IMG/VR virus record: IMGVR_UViG_3300039452_000187
Location: 1 to 64,000 of that record
Source: a virus
Taxonomy: Duplodnaviria; Caudoviricetes
DNA length: 64,000 nt
Direction: 5' to 3' (one strand)
The notes under the pieces are model-generated. The model was not told the origin of the DNA. It ran no database searches and saw only the letters and a program-made list of their open reading frames with translations. Each line of letters opens with the position of its first letter. The stretch's first letter is position 1. Of this stretch, positions 12,878 to 62,681 are shown piece by piece. Made by a program: the position numbers and the translations under genes.

Positions 12878-13002
12878 TTGCGCCCGTCCGCTTACGCCAG
12901 TTTGCGGCTGTCATGTTGTCATCATGCTGTTGTTAAGTTTTGTCATGCGTGCGGCCGATACCAGAAAGGAGGAGATTTCTACAGATTCGGAAGGGGTGGC
13001 TT

Positions 13003-13980
13003 ATGAAACGGATCTTGTTTTTCGCGTGTCTCCTGGCTATAGCCCTGTCCGCTTGCTCGACGACGCCTTGCTGTCCACAAAAGACAACAAGCGTGGCCTG
13101 CGAACCGTGTCCGGCAAGCGCGGGAGCGAAACCGGTGGCGGAACCGACGTGTCCCGTAGCGCCGCCCGCGGCTGCCACCCCGGCCGCGGCGGCGCCCGTT
13201 CCCTGCCCCCCGCCGCCGCCGCCCGTGGTGGAAGTGCGGCAGCAGCCCCAGCAGCAACAGGACATTCAGGTGCAGATGCCGGCTCCCAAAATCATCATCA
13301 ACACGCCGGCGCCGCAGACGATCACTCTGCCCGCTCAGCAGCCGGTATTGACTCAGCCGCCACAGATGCCGCAGCTGGCGTCCTACGGGATGCAAGCGAT
13401 ACCGGCTGGCGCCCAGGTGACGCAGATTCCGACCGGGCGGGCGCGGCTCGACCTGACGCTCGATTTGATTCGGATTCCGATTCCTATTCCCAGGTTCATC
13501 GCGGTTCCGACCACGCCGGAAGTTGTGCTGCCCGCCGTCGTGGGCGCGTACGGGGCGACACCGGCGGCTTTCCCGACGATGCCGATGGCGGCCGCACCGA
13601 TGATGCAGGCGGCTTACGCTCAGCCGGTGCAGCCGATGATGATGCAGCCCCAAATGATGCAACCCCAGATGATGGCCGCCGCCTACCAGCAGCCCGTGCA
13701 GACCATGCAGCCCATGATGATGCCGGCTCCGATGGTAGCACCGGCCGCGCCGCCCGCGATGCTGCCCGTCCAGGGCCAGTTAACGGTGCCTGTTGCTGGT
13801 CAGGTCCCGGCTCACCTACTTGGTCAAGCGGCCGTCGCTCCCACATTAGGGGCGGTACCCCCGGCCGCGCCAGCCGTCGCCCTCGATCCGCGCACCGCCG
13901 CCGAGTATTGCCGACAGGTGGAAGCTCTCAAGGCGGCTCTTGATGCTAGCGCCAAAGCGATGGGCTGTCAGCCCAAGTAA
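13003..13980 (+). CDS. Pro/Gln/Met-rich lipoprotein (moron)
   Basis: MKRILFFACLLAIALSA-C lipobox; low-complexity body. Confidence 0.75.
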   Translation: MKRILFFACLLAIALSACSTTPCCPQKTTSVACEPCPASAGAKPVAEPTCPVAPPAAATPAAAAPVPCPPPPPPVVEVRQQPQQQQDIQVQMPAPKIIINTPAPQTITLPAQQPVLTQPPQMPQLASYGMQAIPAGAQVTQIPTGRARLDLTLDLIRIPIPIPRFIAVPTTPEVVLPAVVGAYGATPAAFPTMPMAAAPMMQAAYAQPVQPMMMQPQMMQPQMMAAAYQQPVQTMQPMMMPAPMVAPAAPPAMLPVQGQLTVPVAGQVPAHLLGQAAVAPTLGAVPPAAPAVALDPRTAAEYCRQVEALKAALDASAKAMGCQPK

Positions 13981-14174: not shown

Positions 14175-14310
14175 AAAAGGATCGTTCCCAACGGCTGGAG
14201 CGTACAAACAAAAGATGCTTCGTAGTGGAGCGTCAGCCTTATAAGCTGAAAGGACGGGTGCGACTCCCGTTCTTTTGTTACCTCGCTTGAGCGACTTGAA
14301 CGGTCCTTTT
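14175..14310 (+). ncRNA. Y-like RNA 1 enclosing a whole tRNA-like cloverleaf (anticodon UAU)
   Basis: Outer stem AAAAGGATCGTTC/GAACGGTCCTTTT, CCAAC/GACTT internal loop, second stem, TACAAAC; cloverleaf 14207-14279 with TCAGC-CTTATAA-GCTGA and ACGGG-TGCGACT-CCCGT. Confidence 0.75.
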
Positions 14311-14317
14311 CTTACTT

Positions 14318-14394
14318 CGCGGGGTGGACTGGAGCCAGGTTTCCAGCACGGTCTCATAAGCCGTCTCACGCAGGTTCAAATCCTGCTCCCGCGA
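14318..14394 (+). tRNA. tRNA with CAU anticodon (Met or Ile2), atypical D arm, no encoded CCA
   Basis: CGCGGGG/TCCCGCG acceptor, ACGGT-CTCATAA-GCCGT, GCAGG-TTCAAAT-CCTGC. Confidence 0.85.
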
Positions 14395-14396
14395 CT

Positions 14397-14535
14397 GTCC
14401 GTGCCCGACAGTGAGAACGTACAAACTGCATGTGGGTTCGACTCCCATCTTCTTCGCAAGGAGAAGTAGCCTAACGGTAAGGCAAACCTCTGATAAAGGT
14501 TGATAGTGATTCCCGTTTTCATGACTTGCACGGAC
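14397..14535 (+). ncRNA. YrlA-like Y RNA with circularly permuted tRNA domain (anticodon GAU)
   Basis: GTCCGTGC/GCACGGAC outer stem, CCGAC/GACTT loop; T arm (GTGGG-TTCGACT-CCCAT), acceptor stem closed by GCAA, D arm (GCCT-AACGGTA-AGGC), anticodon arm (AACCT-CTGATAA-AGGTT). Confidence 0.85.
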
Positions 14536-14540
14536 GATTT

Positions 14541-14660
14541 TCCAGGAGTAGCAGATCAGGTTTGCTTTTGCGACTTGGATGCTCGGCGTCCTCAATGGCA
14601 GAAGCTTACATGCGTCAGCCCGCAAAGCTGAAGAAGCTGGTGCGATTCCAGCCTCCTGGA
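14541..14660 (+). ncRNA. tRNA-like RNA (anticodon GCA) with the Y-like module inserted in the D loop
   Basis: TCCAGGAG/CTCCTGGA acceptor, TCAGC-CCGCAAA-GCTGA, GCTGG-TGCGATT-CCAGC; insert GCTTTTGC-GACTT-GGATGC-tcg-GCGTCC-TCAAT-G-GCAGAAGC. Confidence 0.75.
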
Positions 14661-14695: not shown

Positions 14696-14780
14696 TGGGG
14701 GAGTAGGCTTCATTCTGTTCCGGTGACTTGGACGCTTGGCGTCCCCAACGGTCGAAACATACAAACTCCTACCCACCCCA
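14696..14780 (+). ncRNA. Stand-alone permuted Y-like module RNA
   Basis: TGGGG..GTAGG/CCTAC..CCCCA outer stem; TGTTCCGGT-GACTT-GGACGC-ttg-GCGTCC-CCAAC-GGTCGAAACA-TACAAACT. Confidence 0.7.
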
Positions 14781-14794
14781 CCCGACTGTTTCGA

Positions 14795-14831
14795 GCGGTG
14801 CCGGCTTGATCGCGACCGGCACCGCCTTTTT
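14795..14831 (+). terminator. Intrinsic terminator between RNA array and protein genes
   Basis: GCGGTGCCGG/CCGGCACCGC 10-bp stem followed by CTTTTT. Confidence 0.7.
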
Positions 14832-14864
14832 CTATCCATCGCCACCTGTTCTGGAGGTCATGCG

Positions 14865-15188
14865 ATGCAGCAGCAACAGTTCAACCATCCCCATCAGCAG
14901 CAGCCAGGCGGCATCTTGGACGAGACGCTTGCCGCTACGGCCCACGCGCAAGCCCAGCAGCCCAACGGCGCCGCCACGCCTGTGCGGCTGCTCCATGCCC
15001 GGTTCGGCGGGCGCTCGCACGATATTCCGCTGAGCGTGCTCGATCTCGGGGACCAATCCGCCGACGCGCAGGTGATTGCCGCGCTCGCCAACCATCTGGA
15101 CGTGCCGCGCGAGAAGTTCGCCGCCTACGCGGTCGATCGCTCGCCCAACGGCAACTTCACCGTCCGGCCCGAAGCGGTGTTCGGGTGA
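14865..15188 (+). CDS. Ubiquitin-like (beta-grasp) small protein ending in Gly
   Basis: LHARFGGRSHDIPL (beta hairpin), helix DAQVIAALANHLDVP, terminal strand FTVRPEAVFG*; GGAGG RBS; E1 and JAB in the same operon. Confidence 0.7.
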   Translation: MQQQQFNHPHQQQPGGILDETLAATAHAQAQQPNGAATPVRLLHARFGGRSHDIPLSVLDLGDQSADAQVIAALANHLDVPREKFAAYAVDRSPNGNFTVRPEAVFG

Positions 15189-15439
15189 GCGACCGTTGCC
15201 GCATTGACGAGCATTGCGACTGCTGCGGTGACAAAAGACTGACGCGCGAAGTCCACTTACTTTTCCCAAGCGGCTATGGGGGCCACGTGACCCAACCGGT
15301 CCTGGCCTGTCACGAGTGCGCCTGCCGACAGCTTTACCTGATCGGCTTGAAGCTGACGCCAGAGCAGCTGTGTGAGCTTCGTCGCCAGTTAATGACCGCC
15401 AGAATCGATGCGGAAGATAGCTACACCGGGGGCGAATGA
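15185..15439 (+). CDS. Small Cys-rich Zn-binding protein
   Basis: CDCCG...CHECAC; GTGA overlap with the Ubl gene. Confidence 0.55.
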   Translation: MSDRCRIDEHCDCCGDKRLTREVHLLFPSGYGGHVTQPVLACHECACRQLYLIGLKLTPEQLCELRRQLMTARIDAEDSYTGGE

Positions 15440-15443
15440 AGCC

Positions 15444-17332
<1,889 letters not shown>

Positions 17333-17344
17333 GGATGGTGCCCC

Positions 17345-18259
17345 ATGCCGCGCCTGCGCACCCTCCCTCCTGGCTTTGACCGCCTCGCGGCCGCCGAGTC
17401 CGACTTTTTGCGCCAGCAGTTCCTCGCCCCGCGCCTGGCCAACCAACCCGTCCGCGTCCGCCTCGCCGGGGTGGTCTGTACGCTTCGCGTCGAGCCGGCC
17501 GCCTTCCAGGGCTGGGGCGTCTTCCAGCCTGTGACCTTGGCTCAGGCCCGGCTGGTGCGCCTCGCCTCGCTCCGGGAACGCACCGCCTATCTTTCGCTCT
17601 TCCCGCGCGTCCGCTTTGTCCTCTGTCGTCGCACTAACGACCAGTGGTACGGCTTGCTGGCCGGCGCCGACAGCCGGTTCCACCTGGTTGCGGCCGGCCC
17701 GGTGCCGTTGCAACTGGTGGATTGTCGGCAGTTGTTCGACACGGTTGTCTGTCGATTTGACGGCAGCCAGTTCTGGTGGGAACAGCCCGAGCCGCGCCGG
17801 GCCAAGCCCGCCGAGCAGCTGCGAGAGGCGCTGGCCGGGCTCCGCGAGCCGGAGGCGCTAGAGGTTTTGGGACTGACGCCGGTGGAACAGGCGGTTTACG
17901 AGGCCCATTATCGGGTGCGGCAGGCAGAGATCGCCGACTCGCTCCGCGACCGCACCGAGGAGCGGTTGGCGGCCGCGCTCGAGCATGCCGGGGCCACGTT
18001 GCAGGGGTACCGGGAACGAGAGGATGCGTTTACGGTGGAATACCTTGTGGACGGCGAGCGGCACACGTCGGTGCTCAGGAAGGACGATCTGCAAGTGCAG
18101 GCGGCCGGGATTTGTTTACGCGGCACTGATGGGCGGTTTGATCTGCAGTCGCTTGTGGGTGTTATCCGCGAGGCGAAGGACGGGCACCGGTTGGTGCGGG
18201 TCGGGATCGACAACCCGCATCAGTACCATGAGGACGAAGACCACGGAGACGAGCCATGA
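17345..18259 (+). CDS. Conserved-looking hypothetical protein, candidate divergent E2-like enzyme
   Basis: C-terminal helix plus beta meander ending AAGICLRGTDGRFDLQSLVGVIRE (Cys257); sits between TROVE and JAB/E1. Confidence 0.5.
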   Translation: MPRLRTLPPGFDRLAAAESDFLRQQFLAPRLANQPVRVRLAGVVCTLRVEPAAFQGWGVFQPVTLAQARLVRLASLRERTAYLSLFPRVRFVLCRRTNDQWYGLLAGADSRFHLVAAGPVPLQLVDCRQLFDTVVCRFDGSQFWWEQPEPRRAKPAEQLREALAGLREPEALEVLGLTPVEQAVYEAHYRVRQAEIADSLRDRTEERLAAALEHAGATLQGYREREDAFTVEYLVDGERHTSVLRKDDLQVQAAGICLRGTDGRFDLQSLVGVIREAKDGHRLVRVGIDNPHQYHEDEDHGDEP

Positions 18260-18431: not shown

Positions 18432-18686
18432 ATGCCTGACGAGCAGCAGATCGGTTATTTGTTGGACCGCTGGAAAGAACAGCTGCTGGACGCGGTGCGG
18501 CAAGGTTGCGTGGTCGCCTTTCGGCTGGAGCACGATGGTGGGGAGTTGCTGTTCGGCTATGACGACGAGCCACCGTTCTACGGTCCGATTGAGGGTTGCC
18601 GGTTGACGATCGAGATCGGTCGCTCGGCCATGAAGACGATTCACCGGGCACTGATAGCCGGGAAGACGGAGAGAAAAGCCACGTGA
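18432..18686 (+). CDS. Hypothetical protein
   Basis: ORF with RBS and GTGA overlap with the JAB gene. Confidence 0.5.
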   Translation: MPDEQQIGYLLDRWKEQLLDAVRQGCVVAFRLEHDGGELLFGYDDEPPFYGPIEGCRLTIEIGRSAMKTIHRALIAGKTERKAT

Positions 18687-19120
18687 GCACGACACCAAAA
18701 CCGACGCGAAAGCACAAGCGGAAGAAGAGTGGCGAGAACGAGGTCGCCAGTGTTCTGTTAGGGCGCCGCGCCGGCCGTCTCTGGCTCTGTCGAGCGTGTT
18801 GGGAGTGGACCGGGACTCCCGTCTCGGTGGAGTTTGCCGCCCAGCGTGTCCTCGAGGAAGAAGGCTATTTCGGGGACGTGATGGGCTTCTACCACACGCA
18901 CCCCAACATGCCGGCCCGGCCGAGTGAGCGTGACATCCGCACCATGCAAGCCTGGGTGGGCTGCCTGGGCAAGCCACTGTTGTGTCTTATCAGGGGCCGG
19001 GACGGTTTGCGTGGTTGGGTGTTCCGCGATGATGAGGACAAGGGCCAACCTCTCGTCGCGCTACTTTGGCAGGAGTCCTTTCAACCCGTGCCCATCTTCG
19101 CTGCCCTGACAAAGGAGTAG
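18683..19120 (+). CDS. JAB/MPN metallopeptidase
   Basis: NEVASVLLG...GFYHTHPNMPARPSERD gives the E...HxH..(7)..S..D JAMM motif. Confidence 0.88.
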   Translation: MSTTPKPTRKHKRKKSGENEVASVLLGRRAGRLWLCRACWEWTGTPVSVEFAAQRVLEEEGYFGDVMGFYHTHPNMPARPSERDIRTMQAWVGCLGKPLLCLIRGRDGLRGWVFRDDEDKGQPLVALLWQESFQPVPIFAALTKE

Positions 19121-19124
19121 CACT

Positions 19125-19778
19125 GTGAAACTCTACCGACACGAAGAAGCCTACCGTGGAGCCGCCGGCCTGGCCAAGCTTGCCAGCGCTAGGGTTGTCC
19201 TGTGCGGCGCCGGAGCGATCGGCAGCAACCTGGCCGATCAGCTGGCCCGCCAGGGCTGCTCCAACCTGGCCGCCATCGACCACGACCGCGTCGAGGAACA
19301 CAACATCGGTACCCAGCGCTATGCCCGGCACGATATCGGCAGTCTCAAGGCGCAGGCTCTGCAAGCCGCCGTGTTCGCGGCCACGGGCGCCGAGCTGGAA
19401 GCGGTGGACAAGCACCTGACGGAGAAGAATGCCCGGAAGCTGTTGCGGGCGGCGGACCTGGTGGTCGAGAGTTTCGATAACGCGAGGTCACGCCGGTTGG
19501 TCCAGGATACCTGCCGGGCATTGCCCAAACAGTGCCTGCACGTCGGTTTATTCGAGGGCTACGCGGAGGTTGTCTGGGATGACCGTTACCGCATCCCCAA
19601 GGATCCTCTGCGTGCCGGTACCGGCACCGCTGTGGACGTGTGCGACCTGCCCTTGGCTCGCAACCTCATCATGCTGGCCGTTACGGTCGCCGCCGAAGCT
19701 GTGGTGAGTTATCTGCTTTTCGGCCGGCACCGCTCCTTCACTATCACCTTGGACGATCTGCGCATCAGCGAAAGCTGA
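19125..19778 (+). CDS. ThiF/E1-like adenylyltransferase
   Basis: VVLCGAGAIGS, IDHDRVEEHNIGTQ, K, ESFDNARSR; candidate thioester Cys173 in DVCDLP. Confidence 0.92.
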   Translation: MKLYRHEEAYRGAAGLAKLASARVVLCGAGAIGSNLADQLARQGCSNLAAIDHDRVEEHNIGTQRYARHDIGSLKAQALQAAVFAATGAELEAVDKHLTEKNARKLLRAADLVVESFDNARSRRLVQDTCRALPKQCLHVGLFEGYAEVVWDDRYRIPKDPLRAGTGTAVDVCDLPLARNLIMLAVTVAAEAVVSYLLFGRHRSFTITLDDLRISES

Positions 19779-56384: not shown

Positions 56385-59300
56385 TTACTCCTTGACTGAG
56401 AGGTTGTGCTGTTCGCGGTAGGCCGCTTCGGGATCCTGGCGGTATTTTTCCAGCCAGCGCTTGGCCTCATCGCGCTGCTCATTAGTCATGTAGCCGGACA
56501 CGTTGTAGTCATCATAAGGCTTCGCCTGCGCTTCGAGCGCCTTGATAGCCGCCGGGATCTTGGAGGTAATGACTTCCTCCGGCGTTGCCGGTCGGACCAG
56601 CACATGCTGCATGCGTCCTAGCCCACCAATCTCCGGGTCGCGCAACTCAAAGACGTCGCTGCCGGCCAGGACGGTGTAATCCTTGCCGCGTACCTGGATG
56701 ACCGCCCCCTTTTTCTTGGGCGGAAAGCCACCGGTTCCGCCCACCCCCAGATCCTGCTGCGCCTTGATGCGCCAGACTAGGGCATCGGCCGGAGGATTTT
56801 TCGGCAGGTCGCGCTTGGTCATGCCGAAATCCTTGGGCTTGTCGTAGAGCTTGCCAACCTTGCCCCGCGCCGCGTCGTAGACCTTTCGCGTGAACGCCGG
56901 CTTCAGCGCCTTCTCCATCACGTCGGAGAGGACGTAGGACAAACCTCGATTCGGATCATCGGCTTTGATGCCCAGATCGCTGGCCAATCGCTCCAGTCGT
57001 GGCCGGCTCAGGCTGTAAATGCTATCTCGCCACTCTTTTTGGACGCGCTCAGGGTCATTTGTCGTGGCCGCCTGCGCCAGCAGATCCTTGGCGCGAGCAG
57101 CCCGTTCGGCGCGTCCGTGTTCGGCGGTCGCGGCCTCGTAGCGATCCTGCGCCGCCTTGAAAATATGCGTGTTGGGGTAAGTTCGATCCCGCTTCGCCGG
57201 ATCGGCGCCCACGATTCGCTCTGCTTCCTCGCGCTCTTCGGCCGACAGATCGTTGAGCGTCGGCGCCATGTCAATCCAGCCCTGCACCGCCGCCGGATTG
57301 GCCACAAAGCGGCGCAAGAAGTCGAGCGCCGGTTCCCCTGGCTGCCGCTTCAGTGGGCCACCCTGTTGCGTTGCAGTCGGAGTAACTGCCGATACGGCTG
57401 GCTGGGACACGTCTGGCTGCTTGACCGACTCGGGCTTCGGTGCCGCTGCAGCCGGTGGCGCCAGGGCCGCCTTGGCATCCTCATAGCCTCGCCGCCAGCG
57501 ATTGACTTTGCCGCCACTCCAGCCCCGCTCCTTCCATGATTCCTCCGTCTTGCCCGCCAGGGCATCGACGAATCCAGCTCGGAACTCGTCGGCCGGAGGC
57601 GTGCCCGCCTGAAGATTCCGTTTCGCCAGAGCTTCCGCCAACGCGACCTCGTGCCCCGCTGCCACCGTGTCAGATTGTGCCCCTGTCATTGCTGCCGTGC
57701 CGACCATCGCATTCCCCTCCGCAGGCTTCCCCGGTGTCGCGCCCGTCGCGTCACCTGCAGAGATCATAGTCTGTTGGACCGGACTAGTCAAGTCTTCCTG
57801 ACTAGAATTCGCGGAAGTTTTTTCGGGCGGGCTTGGGACCGGTGCCGGTTCGGTTTCCGGCGGCTCACTGGCCGATTGCTGGGCCGTTGCCGGTTGGTTC
57901 TCCTTCAAGCGGTACAGCGGCCCGCCGTATCGCCGTGCCACCTTCTCGACATGCCCGCTCCGTTCCAACTCTTCCAGGTGCCGTTGCAGCTCGGCGCTTG
58001 GCTTACCTGTCGCATCGGCCAGTTCATCGACCGACGCAATGCCGTGCTCGGAGAGGACCGCCAAGGTTGAGTGGTCGGCGCCGGAAATATTGGAGGGTTG
58101 TTCCACTGCCGGTGCCGGCGCCGGTGCCTGTGACTGTTTCCCTTTCAGTGCCTGTTCCACCACATCGGCGCCATTGCGGTAGTAGCCCGCCAACTCCTTA
58201 TGCCCGGCCTTTTCCAGGGCGGGAATGAGCGTCTCGCGAATGCGCTGGACCACATTCGCCAGCCCCTTCTCGCCTTGCCGCCGGTAGCCCGGATCGGCCG
58301 AGGTCATAAAGCGGTTCCAATTGGACGCTGCCGATCTCAGCCATTCGTTCGTATGAAGTCCGAGCTGGGCATGAAGTTTGTCCAGGTGGCGTGTGTCCGC
58401 GTTGGCCAGTGCTTCCAACTTCTGGCCGATGTCGCGCGTAGGGTCGATCAAGATAGCCCGATCGCGTGCGGAAAGGACATCAGTTTCGGCCGCAGCCTTC
58501 ATCGGATCAGCGGTAGCCAGTGCGGACTGCGCGGTCTGCGGCTGGTTGGCCTGGTTGGCCTGGTTGCTCGGTGCTTGTTTCGACGACCGCTCAGCATCCG
58601 TCAACATCGCCGCAATCTCGTGCAGGCCGTTGACGCCAGCTTTTTCCATCGCGGATTGCAGCAGCTGCCGCGCCAAGAAGCTACTCGGCAGCGCTGCAAG
58701 ATGTTTCCTGGCGCCAAACGTCATCACGTCTTGTTCGGCCATATGCCTTGGGATACCTTTCTCCCAGGCAATGCCATCCTCTGGAACTTCCTTGCCGTTG
58801 GCGCGTTCCTCGGCCACTTCACGCTCGATCCGATCGAGATACCTCTTCTCCAACTGCTGGGCCAAGTTTTTTAATCTGCCTTCACCGATCGCTTCGGCAA
58901 ACTCCTTCCACTCTTTCATGTTGATCGTGCTCCGCTGCATCGCCTTGTAATTGGGATGCTCGCCAAACCACTTGAGTCGCCCCAGGGGACTGGCATTGAT
59001 GTCATTCCACTTGACCTGCTGCTCCTGCCGCTCTTTCTCGTCCTGGATTTGTTCTGGCGTCATTGGCTCGCGCGGCTGCTTTTGCTTGGCATTTTCGCTG
59101 GGCGGCTTGCCCATCTCGCCGCCTTGCGGTTCTTTAGTCTGGGGCTTCTGGTCAGGTTTCACCGAGAGTCCGTGAATCGGCATCCACCGGCCGCCCTTGT
59201 AGAACTCACCGTTAACCGGGGACGTTTCGCCGCCAGCTTTCGCCTTCACCCAGGTTGTCCCTTTACTGTCCTTGAACTTGTTTGCATCGGCTGGAGGTTT

Positions 59301-62300
59301 TTCGGCTGGTTGCTCCGCGCCATCGGCGCCGCTTGTCTTCTCCGTTGCCGCGTCAATCTGCCCCGTGATGCCGTGCTCCTTGGCCCACTCCAGCATGTGC
59401 TTGTACGCCTTGAGTCGTTTGCCGAACTGCTCCCGCAACCCTTCCGCGTTGGGGTGCTCGGGCGGAATCCCGTCCAGGAACTTCTGATGCTCCTGGATCA
59501 GTTCTTCCAGCCGATGTACCGTGAGTTCGCCGTGGTGCGAGCGGAGCCCGGCGAAGCTGGCCTTAGCCCGGCGCAATTCCAGTTCTGACAACTCATGGCG
59601 GGTGTGTGGCTCGAGCTGCTCGTGCAACTTGGCGACGTCGATACTACCACGCGACCGGCGCCGCTCGGTCTGCTCCTCCTTGGCCTTGTCAATCTTGGCC
59701 TTTTCGCTGGCCGGCAACTTTTCGACTTCCTTGGCCGGAATCCACTGCCCGCCTTTGTAGTGCCTGCCGTTGGCGCCAACGATGCCACCCTTCGGGGCGC
59801 GCTCCGCAGCGTATTGGTCCGCCTCCTCGCCCTGCTTAATGTCCCACTTCTTCCGTTCTTCATCCCAGGCCACGTACCAGCCCGTCCCTTCCAATTCCTC
59901 TGCCGCCGCCGCAAACTCGCTCTCGGGAATCTCCAGCCCGGCGTCGTCCAGGGCGTTCCAGCCGTCGGCATACCAGCGGGCCAGCTCCCGAGCTTGCACC
60001 GAAGAATCTGGGTCCGCTGCTTCCCGGTCATAGCGCTCCTGCGCGGGCGGCCCCACCGCGATGCCGAAGTGGACGAACTTGCGGCCCTGGTCGTCCTGGT
60101 CGTGCCAGATTTGCTCGAAGCGCTCCACGGGGATCATGACCCGGCCGGGCGTGCGCTCCACATCTCGATCGTTGGTCACGTTGTCAATCGAACTGTCCTG
60201 GCAGAATACCTGCCCGAGCCCTACGCCAATGACCGTGAGATAGTGCCCGTAGTTAAACGAAGCCCCGGCGCTCCTTCTGTGCCCGTAATCTTGCACCGGG
60301 GTAATGACCGGCCAGCCGCGCCCGAAGTAGTCGGCCAAATCGTCCACGGCCATTCCATTCCGGGCTTCCACCTGCAAACCGAGCGAGCGCAGGTAATCAA
60401 TGATGGCGTAGGGGTGCGTAGATTTGGCCAGCGTCGTGCCGAGCGCCTGCTTCCACTCCGCCAGGCGCTCGGGGCCGACGCCGAAATACCGCCCCGTGGT
60501 CATCGAGGCACAGGCGCCGCAGCTGTAGTGATCGCGCTGGCGTATGTCCTGGACCGGCAGCAGTTCACTGCCAGGCGCGGCCGCAGTGAGAGCGTCGGTA
60601 CGGTCATAGCGGGCGGGCTGGTCGGCGCGGGCCAGGTCGATCTTCGGGTTGCTGGGATCAAAGGTGCCCGCGTTGTCCACAGCCTTGATTTGGTGAGGCT
60701 CGAAGGCAATCCAGACCCGGTGCTGCTGAACCCCTTCGATTTTTTTGCCGCGGCGAGACCCATAATGACCCACATGGGTAATCCCGTCATACCCTTGTGC
60801 GGCTAAATGCTTCTGGAGTCCCGACTTACTCAAGCCTCCTTGACGGACAACCTCTTCATAACTCGCGTGGGGTCGCTGAACCTCGTGGACATCGGGCTGA
60901 AAACTGATGTTGTAAGGCCGCAGGGCCTTGCGAAATTCCGGGTGGGATTGATAGAGGCCCCAGAGCCGTTGCGGTTCGGCCGTCATCATTTGCTTCATTT
61001 GTTGCCAGGTGAAATTCATCGACACGTTCGGTAACGATTCAAGCGCCGCGTGCATCTGTTGCCAGTGCTGATCGGTCGGCGTGACTGCCTCATCACTGAC
61101 CAGCAGAATGGGCCGTGTCTGTTTGATGCGAAACCGACTGCGCGCCGGCTCGGGAAGGTCTGCTGTAGCAATCTTGCCACGGTCAATGTCAAACGGCTTG
61201 CGGATGTTGAGGTACACGCTAAAAACGTGTCCCTTGGGCCGTTCCACCCAGCCGGCAAACTGGTTGCCGAACTCTGCATTGAGAATGTGCTCACCCTTGG
61301 CAACGGCGACACCGACGTTGCTCTCTGTTGAGTCAAGAATCATCGCTTCCAGCTGATGCAACTGGTATTGGCGAGACTCCAAATCTTCAGCCTGCCGCTG
61401 GAGCGATCGTTGAGCGACACGGTCCTGAGTCAACCTCAATTCCTTCACTGTGTACTGCAGATCGGCCGCCACCTTCGCGGCTTTTTGCTTGAGCGCCGGC
61501 AGTAACTCGCGGCGCACTCGTTCCACCGGCACGGCGAGTTTACCGCCAGCCCTGTCGACCAGGCCACTCCCGTGCTGCTTGTAGTCCTCCGCGATCGCCG
61601 CCGCGTCCGTAAAATAGAACCCTGGTCCATAGAACAGCTTTTCGCCCTTGGCGAGTTTGCTTTTCAAGAACTCGTCAAAGCGGTCCCAAGGGGTGCCGTG
61701 GTACACCACCTTGGGCATCAGGTTCTCAACGACGACCGAATGTTCCACCGGTGCCTGCTGCTGCGGCTCACCCGTTTCCGGGTCGATGACTTTGGACGCA
61801 TGGGCCGCATCGTGCTCCCAATCGCCGAACCAGGCACGAAACGCGGGAGCGCGGGTGCCAAGCTCCTGATACTCCTTGCGCAGCCGGGCTGCTTTCGCTT
61901 CCGGCGTCTCTGGCGCCGCTGCGGCCGGAGCTTGCTTGCCTTGTGCATCCTGACCTGGTTCCGGGCGCGGCCCCGGATCGTCCTCATGCTCGCCCTCGTG
62001 CTCGTGCCCGCCCGGCATTTCGTCCCGGTACAACACTCTCCCCGTGCGGTTGCTCTTCCAGCCCTTACCGCCGCGCGGTCCCGTGTACGGCGTCCACTCC
62101 CCGCCCGCGCTGCCGCCGCCCTGCGGGTCCAGGAAATTGGTTTGCCCGGCCGCGTCCTTTTTCTTCCGCGCGTACTGGTCCGCCTCTGGCTGGTAGGTGC
62201 CGTCCCACTCCAGCACCAACTCCCGCAGCTGCTCGGGATCCTTCACCGGCTCGGCCTCGCTCAGACTGAACGGGCCGCCGCCGCGATGGTAGTACAGGTC

Positions 62301-62681
62301 ATGCCCGGGACTATCATTCCGGTCGTCCACCACCACGACATGCTCCGCGATCTCTGGGGCCTCCACCTGGTCTGTCGTGCCGCCCTGCGGCAGCGTCACC
62401 AGGCAGATCCGGTGCAAAGAATCGTCATGCGGATCGGTGAGGTAGAGCCAGCCGCCGCGCGGCACCGCCCCCAGCACGTCCGCCAGGACGGCCGCGTTCT
62501 GGACGTTGACGGGATCAGGCGGCGGCAAAGGCTCGGTCAGCTCGTTTGTGTTGTCCGATTCGGCCGCGTACTTCCCGACTGAGGCTGCCGCCAAGACTTC
62601 TTCCAGTTCGGCGTCGGTCACTGCCGTAGCATCCGTCAGACCGCTGAGAAAGGACCGAAACTCCTGCACTAGCGCTGTCAC
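56385..62681 (-). CDS. Giant polyvalent protein: ART-like domain, C39 peptidase, wHTH and others
   Basis: FRAWFGDW..VYHGT..GFYFTD..VYLNIRKP..GYDGI..FEPHQIK (ART-PolyVal-like, ~60640-61850); Q...YSCGAC..GHY...QD (C39, ~60050-60565); wHTH ~57900-58070. Confidence 0.85.
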   Translation of the reverse strand: MTALVQEFRSFLSGLTDATAVTDAELEEVLAAASVGKYAAESDNTNELTEPLPPPDPVNVQNAAVLADVLGAVPRGGWLYLTDPHDDSLHRICLVTLPQGGTTDQVEAPEIAEHVVVVDDRNDSPGHDLYYHRGGGPFSLSEAEPVKDPEQLRELVLEWDGTYQPEADQYARKKKDAAGQTNFLDPQGGGSAGGEWTPYTGPRGGKGWKSNRTGRVLYRDEMPGGHEHEGEHEDDPGPRPEPGQDAQGKQAPAAAAPETPEAKAARLRKEYQELGTRAPAFRAWFGDWEHDAAHASKVIDPETGEPQQQAPVEHSVVVENLMPKVVYHGTPWDRFDEFLKSKLAKGEKLFYGPGFYFTDAAAIAEDYKQHGSGLVDRAGGKLAVPVERVRRELLPALKQKAAKVAADLQYTVKELRLTQDRVAQRSLQRQAEDLESRQYQLHQLEAMILDSTESNVGVAVAKGEHILNAEFGNQFAGWVERPKGHVFSVYLNIRKPFDIDRGKIATADLPEPARSRFRIKQTRPILLVSDEAVTPTDQHWQQMHAALESLPNVSMNFTWQQMKQMMTAEPQRLWGLYQSHPEFRKALRPYNISFQPDVHEVQRPHASYEEVVRQGGLSKSGLQKHLAAQGYDGITHVGHYGSRRGKKIEGVQQHRVWIAFEPHQIKAVDNAGTFDPSNPKIDLARADQPARYDRTDALTAAAPGSELLPVQDIRQRDHYSCGACASMTTGRYFGVGPERLAEWKQALGTTLAKSTHPYAIIDYLRSLGLQVEARNGMAVDDLADYFGRGWPVITPVQDYGHRRSAGASFNYGHYLTVIGVGLGQVFCQDSSIDNVTNDRDVERTPGRVMIPVERFEQIWHDQDDQGRKFVHFGIAVGPPAQERYDREAADPDSSVQARELARWYADGWNALDDAGLEIPESEFAAAAEELEGTGWYVAWDEERKKWDIKQGEEADQYAAERAPKGGIVGANGRHYKGGQWIPAKEVEKLPASEKAKIDKAKEEQTERRRSRGSIDVAKLHEQLEPHTRHELSELELRRAKASFAGLRSHHGELTVHRLEELIQEHQKFLDGIPPEHPNAEGLREQFGKRLKAYKHMLEWAKEHGITGQIDAATEKTSGADGAEQPAEKPPADANKFKDSKGTTWVKAKAGGETSPVNGEFYKGGRWMPIHGLSVKPDQKPQTKEPQGGEMGKPPSENAKQKQPREPMTPEQIQDEKERQEQQVKWNDINASPLGRLKWFGEHPNYKAMQRSTINMKEWKEFAEAIGEGRLKNLAQQLEKRYLDRIEREVAEERANGKEVPEDGIAWEKGIPRHMAEQDVMTFGARKHLAALPSSFLARQLLQSAMEKAGVNGLHEIAAMLTDAERSSKQAPSNQANQANQPQTAQSALATADPMKAAAETDVLSARDRAILIDPTRDIGQKLEALANADTRHLDKLHAQLGLHTNEWLRSAASNWNRFMTSADPGYRRQGEKGLANVVQRIRETLIPALEKAGHKELAGYYRNGADVVEQALKGKQSQAPAPAPAVEQPSNISGADHSTLAVLSEHGIASVDELADATGKPSAELQRHLEELERSGHVEKVARRYGGPLYRLKENQPATAQQSASEPPETEPAPVPSPPEKTSANSSQEDLTSPVQQTMISAGDATGATPGKPAEGNAMVGTAAMTGAQSDTVAAGHEVALAEALAKRNLQAGTPPADEFRAGFVDALAGKTEESWKERGWSGGKVNRWRRGYEDAKAALAPPAAAAPKPESVKQPDVSQPAVSAVTPTATQQGGPLKRQPGEPALDFLRRFVANPAAVQGWIDMAPTLNDLSAEEREEAERIVGADPAKRDRTYPNTHIFKAAQDRYEAATAEHGRAERAARAKDLLAQAATTNDPERVQKEWRDSIYSLSRPRLERLASDLGIKADDPNRGLSYVLSDVMEKALKPAFTRKVYDAARGKVGKLYDKPKDFGMTKRDLPKNPPADALVWRIKAQQDLGVGGTGGFPPKKKGAVIQVRGKDYTVLAGSDVFELRDPEIGGLGRMQHVLVRPATPEEVITSKIPAAIKALEAQAKPYDDYNVSGYMTNEQRDEAKRWLEKYRQDPEAAYREQHNLSVKE

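Follow-up and report, generated by a model that had tools for sequence, protein, structure and literature searches.

The question raised by the locus described here is which protein takes the place of the E2 carrier in a phage operon that encodes a ubiquitin-like protein (Ubl), a ThiF-type E1 and a JAB metallopeptidase. The locus lies in the window, i.e., the whole stretch of 64,000 nucleotides that was analysed (positions 1 to 64,000 of the IMG/VR record IMGVR_UViG_3300039452_000187, a virus of Caudoviricetes), with the source record being a complete 97.5-kb phage that has direct terminal repeats and that also encodes an integrase, a C5 DNA methylase and an NT5C nucleotidase. The element in question is the open reading frame (ORF) at 17345-18259 on the plus strand, the stop-free translation of which gives 304 amino acids, with the opposite strand across it being full of stops. 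The original prediction, made from the letters alone, had proposed a new E2-like family with an AGICL active-site motif, occupying the slot where such an operon needs an E2. As described below, the encoded protein, termed here the Cys257 protein, is the best candidate for the missing E2 carrier of the system, and we read it as E2-like in role and layout, not as a proven member of the UBC superfamily.

Family and conservation of Cys257

The features of the gene that are needed below are as follows.

17345..18259, plus strand: Cys257 protein, candidate E2-like carrier with the layout OB-OB-helix-Cys-domain, 304 amino acids (translation, homologues, AlphaFold2 model)
17345..17788, plus strand: residues 1-148 (N-terminal region), comprising one helix plus two small OB-like beta-barrels; the motifs FxGWGxFxP and RFDG are conserved here
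17870..18214, plus strand: C-terminal domain, residues 176-290, with a long helix, a four-strand meander, the Cys loop, a 3-10 turn and a helix (domain-only AlphaFold2 model, fold searches)
18113..18115, plus strand: codon of the invariant Cys257, TGT (codon position, alignments)

The motif is present in the stop-free frame as A254-G255-I256-C257-L258, and the family that carries it is large. A word-indexed search gave 471 relatives, all unnamed or annotated as 'hypothetical', and an exhaustive HMMER scan gave 758 clusters at 50% identity that match the protein at E<=0.001. The relatives are encoded at 505 loci in species-representative genomes, mostly of Planctomycetota, Cyanobacteriota, Chloroflexota and Abditibacteriota, with scattered others, as well as in 11 IMG/VR contigs (23-572 kb) and one 595-kb GenBank phage.

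Cys257 is invariant in 30/30 close homologues, and also in all 145 representatives of the 50%-identity clusters (31-55% identity), where only the representatives that cover the Cys257 column are counted. Nearly invariant among the same representatives are G255, L258, D262, D266 and S269, and in the 123-sequence alignment of the family only G255, C257 and D266 are fully invariant; the signature block reads a-G-x-C-L-x-G-x-D-x-x-F-D-L-x-S-L. Judged from these alignments, the conservation of Cys257, which had been named beforehand as the check on which the prediction could fail, is far beyond chance.

By known families the protein is not recognized: no model of Pfam, NCBIfam, PADLOC or PHROGs matches it as a whole, Pfam at E<=10 gives nothing for either half scanned separately, and a Pfam scan of all 123 aligned members gives no recurrent family. 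In the ESM Atlas nothing usable was found for the protein itself. Longer forms (fusions) of the Cys domain were not found, and only six short proteins with this domain were found, which are probably fragments. It is noted that an apparent fusion of the Cys257 protein with JAB (locus L018) was rejected as an artefact of frameshift or read-through, its linker being Arg-rich and out-of-frame-looking.

Predicted structure and the UBC fold

The full-length AlphaFold2 (AF2) model has a predicted local distance difference test (pLDDT) score of 83 and is composed of an N-terminal helix, small barrels at residues 26-73 and 88-148, helices at 150-214, a four-strand meander at 218-254 and a last helix, with the Cys loop poorly defined. 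The domain-only AF2 model of residues 176-290, which was made from 123 sequences, has pLDDT 94 and gives a helix (179-214), four strands (218-224, 228-235, 238-245 and 250-254), the Cys loop and a helix (267-278), in agreement with the helix, beta meander, cysteine and final helix that had been read from the C-terminal sequence. In this predicted structure Cys257 is located between strand 4, which ends at residue 254, and the helix 267-278, with a 3-10 turn in between. The helix 267-278 is the only one after Cys257 and is followed by a tail with pLDDT <50, with the UBC helices 3 and 4 being absent from the model. Based on the model, the order of elements is thus that of a minimal UBC core from which the HPN flap and helices 3 and 4 are missing. 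The HPN motif is absent, as had been stated, the stretch from strand 4 to Cys257 being Q-A-A-G-I only. Since this motif is also absent from UFC1, Atg3 and Atg10, its absence here does not exclude an E2-like mechanism. Note also that the last residues, 283-304, are disordered and acidic (HEDEDHGDEP), and runs of D and E are present at this place in many relatives.

In a fold search of the C-terminal domain, UBC-superfold proteins take 10 of the top 50 places, with scores of 4.7 for the FANCL DRWD, 4.6 for Ubc9, 4.4 for the E2 domain of Cap2, 4.3 for the Tsg101 UEV and 4.3 for a BRISC subunit, and with the RWD chains of KNL1, Ctf19-Mcm21, KMN and the SEA-complex scoring 3.8-4.3 in the same search. 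A second-look search with VIA-align gave the same weak picture (UFC1 3.4, VPS37A UEV 3.3 and Csm1 3.3). The enrichment of UBC-superfold proteins among the matches of the modelled domain is suggestive of a UBC-like arrangement. Several points weigh against an E2-like reading: the fold scores are within the range that the tool describes as a common arrangement; hibernation factors, NTF2-like folds and cystatin-like folds score the same as the UBC-type ones; non-catalytic RWD and UEV proteins match the domain as well as true E2s do; and the protein gives no E2 family signal.

The sequence and structure comparisons behind the last point are as follows. Foldseek against PDB and BFVD gave no match at E<=0.001 for the protein and nothing below E 0.19 for the C-terminal domain. 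The family profile against the PDB sequences found no E2, with only a chance-level match to L14 in the N-terminal domain. No sequence-profile match to the E2 families (UQ_con, Prok-E2_A to E, UFC1, Atg3/10, RWD and UEV) was found with Pfam at E<=10, either for the C-terminal domain or over the 123 members. With HHalign, the profile of the C-terminal domain against six Prok-E2_B (Cap2-type) E2 domains, drawn from 702 cyanobacterial and gammaproteobacterial genomes, gave a probability of 0.2%, which, the template alignment being shallow, is weak negative evidence. Since the fold scores are in the common range, Foldseek gives no match and there is no sequence link, we do not assign the protein to the UBC/E2 superfamily, homology to which could not be shown. 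Of the UBC-like layout that had been predicted, therefore, the order of the elements and the position of the Cys are borne out by the AF2 model, whereas no match by sequence or by Foldseek stands beside them and helices 3 and 4 are lacking.

Compared with the E2 domains of UFC1, Atg3/Atg10, Cap2 and Bil, to which it has no detectable sequence homology, the domain described here differs in having the Cys four residues after strand 4, no HPN flap and one helix after the Cys, and in that two OB-like barrels and long helices always precede it in the same chain. In the Cap2 E2 domains that were retrieved a P-H...G-x-x-C motif is kept, which is lacking in the present family. By contrast with RWD and UEV domains (FANCL DRWD, Tsg101 UEV, kinetochore RWD), which are non-catalytic and are not known to have an invariant Cys, in the present family the Cys is the most conserved residue.

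The gene module and its tRNA genes

The gene order in the window is tRNA-Ile and tRNA-like elements, Ubl, a small Cys-rich ORF, a Ro60-like protein with a vWA domain, the Cys257 protein, JAB and E1. The neighbouring features are as follows.

14209..14278, plus strand: tRNA-Ile, anticodon TAT (Rfam tRNA 46.6 bits, ARAGORN)
14320..14652, plus strand: three weak tRNA-like elements at 14320-14394, 14460-14521 and 14596-14652 (Rfam tRNA 29.7, 29.8 and 27 bits) and a weak match to YrlA, which is Y RNA-like, at 14431-14483 (26.2 against a gathering score of 69)
14736..15188, plus strand: Ubl gene, with a conserved part of ~69 amino acids at 14979-15185 that ends in ...RPEAVFG and then a stop (translation, homologues)
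15689..17332 (longest ORF from 15515), plus strand: Ro60-like protein, 547-605 amino acids, with a helical TROVE-like ring and a C-terminal vWA domain with the DxSxS motif of the metal-ion-dependent adhesion site (MIDAS) (weak VWA_CoxE Pfam match, ESM Atlas)
18596..19120, plus strand: JAB/JAMM metallopeptidase with the motif H-x-H-x(7)-S-x(2)-D (Prok-JAB 1e-10, translation)
19125..19778, plus strand: short ThiF-type E1, 217 amino acids, with the GxGxxG motif and the Cys173 codon TGC at 19641-19643 (ThiF 3.6e-29)

The Ubl/E1/JAB operon that had been supposed around the protein is borne out by these matches and by the upstream Ubl that ends in Gly. To count the module elsewhere, profile hidden Markov models were built from the first-round hits and applied to the 54 loci that have enough flank. 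Ubl, the vWA protein, JAB and E1 all accompany the Cys257 protein in 28 of these loci, and the full set minus JAB in 15 more, with the complete gene set being present in 12/12 viral loci. E1 is beside the Cys257 protein in 52/54 loci, and the tightest linkage of the Cys257 protein is to E1, not to the RNAs or to the Ro60-like gene.

The C-terminal Gly of Ubl is invariant in 50 sequences, and in 41/44 loci Ubl ends exactly in FG or YG before the stop. No PDB sequence match was found for Ubl; from its size, its beta-beta-alpha-beta-beta pattern and its context, a beta-grasp fold is probable. Two single cases, either of which could be a sequencing error, were also seen: one in which Ubl ends in Gly-Ser (L066), and one in which Ubl and the Ro60-like protein are in one open frame (L047 4992-6803, a Chloroflexia metagenome-assembled genome), where cleavage by JAB after the Gly would be required. 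In E1, the residues R11, G28, G30, G33 and C173 are invariant, and Cys173, which had been named in the prediction, is so in 65 sequences. The E1 profile against PDB matches Uba1 at 5.6e-21 (78 bits), MoeB at 5e-16 (62 bits) and ThiF at 1e-14 (58 bits), and in NCBIfam E1 is best against short ThiF models (6.8e-27, below the cut-off). JAB was found in 29/54 loci and is absent in about a third of the otherwise full sets. Since an 84-residue ORF (18432-18686) with no homologues in the other loci overlaps the annotated 5' end of the JAB gene, the true start of JAB is probably downstream of 18596. The small Cys-rich ORF (15185-15439, 84 amino acids) has a weak HNH match in PHROGs and also has no homologues in the other loci.

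Within the module, conservation is highest for the Ro60-like gene, homologues of which in the other loci match at E 1e-87 to 1e-189, the lowest values being between phyla. The ESM Atlas model of the protein matches TROVE/Ro60-vWA clusters, many of them viral, with template modelling (TM) scores of 0.64-0.70 over ~440-470 residues and with feature scores of 0.94-0.95. Since the Pfam TROVE model has no sequence match to the protein, its Ro60-like identity rests only on this structure and feature search.

In 778 kb over 51 non-redundant loci there are 326 tRNA genes, of which 325 are on the strand of the module, and a same-strand tRNA is present <=600 nt upstream of Ubl or between the Ubl and E1 genes in 27/51 loci, with 15 loci having >=10 tRNAs. 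Because the tRNAs lie nearly all on the same strand and also within the module, the module appears to be transcribed together with them. In the window, the Ro60-like protein could have its RNA partners in the tRNA-Ile and the tRNA-like elements upstream of Ubl, where the weak tRNA-like elements and the YrlA match are a lead only; a canonical YrlA at threshold was found neither in the window nor in 8 loci.

Several side observations on these RNA genes can be added. Same-strand arrays of up to 25 tRNA genes abut or interleave the module (e.g., L024 14-2661, L011 45-3514 and L049 3077-6270), and in several Phycisphaerales and Tepidisphaerales loci a tRNA-His ends the array a few dozen bases before the Ubl gene. 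In two huge-phage contigs (L002 6264-6337 and L090 6886-6957) a tRNA whose anticodon, TCA, reads UGA lies between the Ubl and Ro60-like genes; ARAGORN labels it 'SeC', and it is possibly a suppressor tRNA. A group I intron (67 bits) is inside a phage tRNA array (L088 438-625), and in another viral contig a tmRNA gene is near the module (L094 10686-11097).

Proposed role and rival explanations

We propose that the Cys257 protein is the Cys-bearing transfer subunit of a phage Ubl module, E2-like by position, chemistry and topology, for which we hold the chances to be about even. The proposal builds on the composition of the gene set, on the residues that are invariant, on the topology of the model and on linkage in the genomes, tRNA genes included, while its chemical steps and the identity of the substrate are what we infer. 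In the proposed scheme, the ThiF-type E1 would adenylate the C-terminal Gly of the 69-residue Ubl (...RPEAVFG) and may hold Ubl on its own Cys173. After that, Ubl would be handed to Cys257 as a thioester, which is the E2-like step. The two OB-like barrels, possibly together with the acidic tail, would then set the loaded Cys beside a substrate in or near the Ro60-like RNA-binding particle, and Ubl would be joined to the substrate; the MIDAS site of the vWA domain in the Ro60-like protein could conceivably be where the acidic tail docks. Finally, JAB, where present, would reverse the mark or trim fused Ubl precursors.

An E2-like role for Cys257 is suggested because it is a lone invariant Cys near invariant acidic residues with no partner His, and because the protein is paired near-obligately with E1 and has the UBC-like order of elements. 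That Ubl needs no trimming and yet is often accompanied by JAB suggests reversible conjugation, and from the OB barrels and from the Ro60-like and tRNA surroundings it seems that the substrate is selected on or near an RNA particle. Of the new E2-like family that had been predicted, the position in the operon, the conserved chemistry and the predicted topology thus stand, whereas a kinship with the UBC E2s could not be demonstrated.

Other explanations have to be weighed against this proposal. It is possible, if rather unlikely, that the module works without an E2, like the archaeal SAMP/UbaA or the Thermus TtuB/TtuC systems, with the Cys257 protein being a non-catalytic adaptor or the main substrate; the OB barrels would then bind RNA or the Ro60-like ring, the C-terminal domain would be an RWD/UEV-like module for Ubl binding or docking, and Cys257 would be a structural, redox-sensing or attachment site. 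This is consistent with the equally good matches of non-catalytic RWD and UEV proteins and with the missing E2 signal noted above, and it is also consistent with the RNA binding to which the OB-like barrels and the tRNA/Ro60-like context point, and an E1 alone could conjugate, as has been reported for UbaA. However, a structural Cys is rarely the single most conserved residue over 145 clusters, beside an invariant G255 and near-invariant D262 and D266, and RWD and UEV domains are typically without such a Cys. The tRNA genes inside the operon would be explained by a sulfur relay, in which Ubl is a thiocarboxylate carrier, a persulfide on Cys257 attacks the Ubl adenylate, as the Cys of ThiI/rhodanese does for ThiS, and the sulfur ends in tRNA. 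The best NCBIfam match of E1 to short ThiF models, the interleaving of the tRNAs with the module described above and the use of Ubl/E1/JAMM sets for tRNA thiolation in Thermus are in line with it. We nevertheless consider such a relay improbable: the tail of Ubl is Phe-Gly or Tyr-Gly, as against the Gly-Gly of known sulfur carriers; neither among the conserved genes nor among the window neighbours is there a PP-loop thiolase, a rhodanese or a cysteine desulfurase; the E1 profile scores higher in PDB with the ubiquitin E1s than with MoeB or ThiF; and the frequent JAB beside a Ubl that needs no trimming fits the removal of conjugates better.

More improbable still is that the C-terminal domain is an enzyme or an RNA binder unrelated to Ubl transfer (e.g., dsRBD- or hibernation-factor-like, acting on the tRNA-like RNAs of the module), with the linkage to E1 reflecting shared regulation only. 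Folds of that kind do occur among the matches, but they match no better than the UBC-type ones; no known RNA enzyme family has a lone Cys in such a motif; and the linkage is tightest to E1, rather than to the RNAs or the Ro60-like gene. Even with the Cys257 protein as the transfer subunit, the acceptor could be an RNA: the Ubl carboxylate would be relayed via Cys257 and ester-linked to a tRNA or tRNA-like RNA at its 3' end, with this RNA held in the hole of the Ro60-like ring and by the OB barrels, giving a protein-RNA conjugate that marks, protects or disables tRNAs in infection. To this we give very little credence. In a weaker variant, the Ro60-like protein would be the acceptor of Ubl, and this only in its RNA-bound state.

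Among known systems, the module can be compared with Haloferax SAMP/UbaA/HvJAMM1 and Thermus TtuB/TtuC with JAMM, which likewise combine a MoeB/ThiF-type E1 and a JAMM peptidase with a small Ubl, and the Thermus and archaeal E2-less systems share with it a tRNA link. By contrast, the SAMP/TtuB Ubls end in Gly-Gly, serve as sulfur carriers too and are not accompanied by a dedicated Cys protein, whereas the present Ubl has a Phe-Gly/Tyr-Gly tail and a Cys protein is co-inherited with E1 in nearly all loci (52/54). As to the Ro60 (Rsr)-Y RNA particles (Salmonella rsr-yrlBA-rtcBA; Ro60 of Thermus phage phiLo, PMC12135203), the module likewise has a Ro60-shaped TROVE+vWA protein, encoded upstream of the Cys257 protein. 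Just as Y RNAs lie beside rsr in those systems, the operon described here includes genes for tRNAs and tRNA-like RNAs. No RtcB or RNA-repair genes, however, are seen among the window neighbours.

In the literature searched there is no description of the gene set of the module, nor of a Ubl cascade tied to a Ro60 particle and phage tRNA arrays. The Ro60 papers searched do not mention Ubl, E1, JAB or the Cys257 protein, and the paper on the phage Ro60 structure (PMC12135203) does not mention a Ubl link. The operon types 6a-6e of Iyer et al. 2006 (PMC1779556) differ, the present gene set not being among them. In a full-text search the Bub and Bil preprints do not mention a vWA domain. A jumbo-phage survey mentions a ROT/TROVE protein without a link to Ubl, JAB or ThiF, and in an Asgard-virus preprint Ro60 and ThiF genes are listed for the same virus, with no connection drawn between them. 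The link of the Ubl module to the Ro60-like particle and the tRNA arrays is a more surprising result than the E2 question itself.

If Cys257 does carry Ubl, the family, which is spread over hundreds of bacterial species and phages up to ~600 kb, would offer a new structural solution for the E2 step, in which a stripped-down UBC-like core, or a convergent look-alike, is fused to nucleic-acid-binding barrels. A Ubl tagging cascade would then be physically tied to a Ro60-type RNA surveillance particle and phage tRNA arrays, and two questions would become directly testable, namely by what means phages manage their own tRNAs or protect them, and how, before eukaryotes, ubiquitin-like chemistry came to be recruited. 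Should Cys257 serve another purpose, what remains is a large and uncharacterised family that is a strictly conserved partner of an E1.

Finally, we note two other ORFs of the window. The ORF at 12940-13980 encodes 346 amino acids, among which Pro, Gln, Met and Ala are very abundant; its N-terminus is signal-like, and it matches no family. The largest ORF of the window is at 56385-62681 on the minus strand, with 2098 amino acids.
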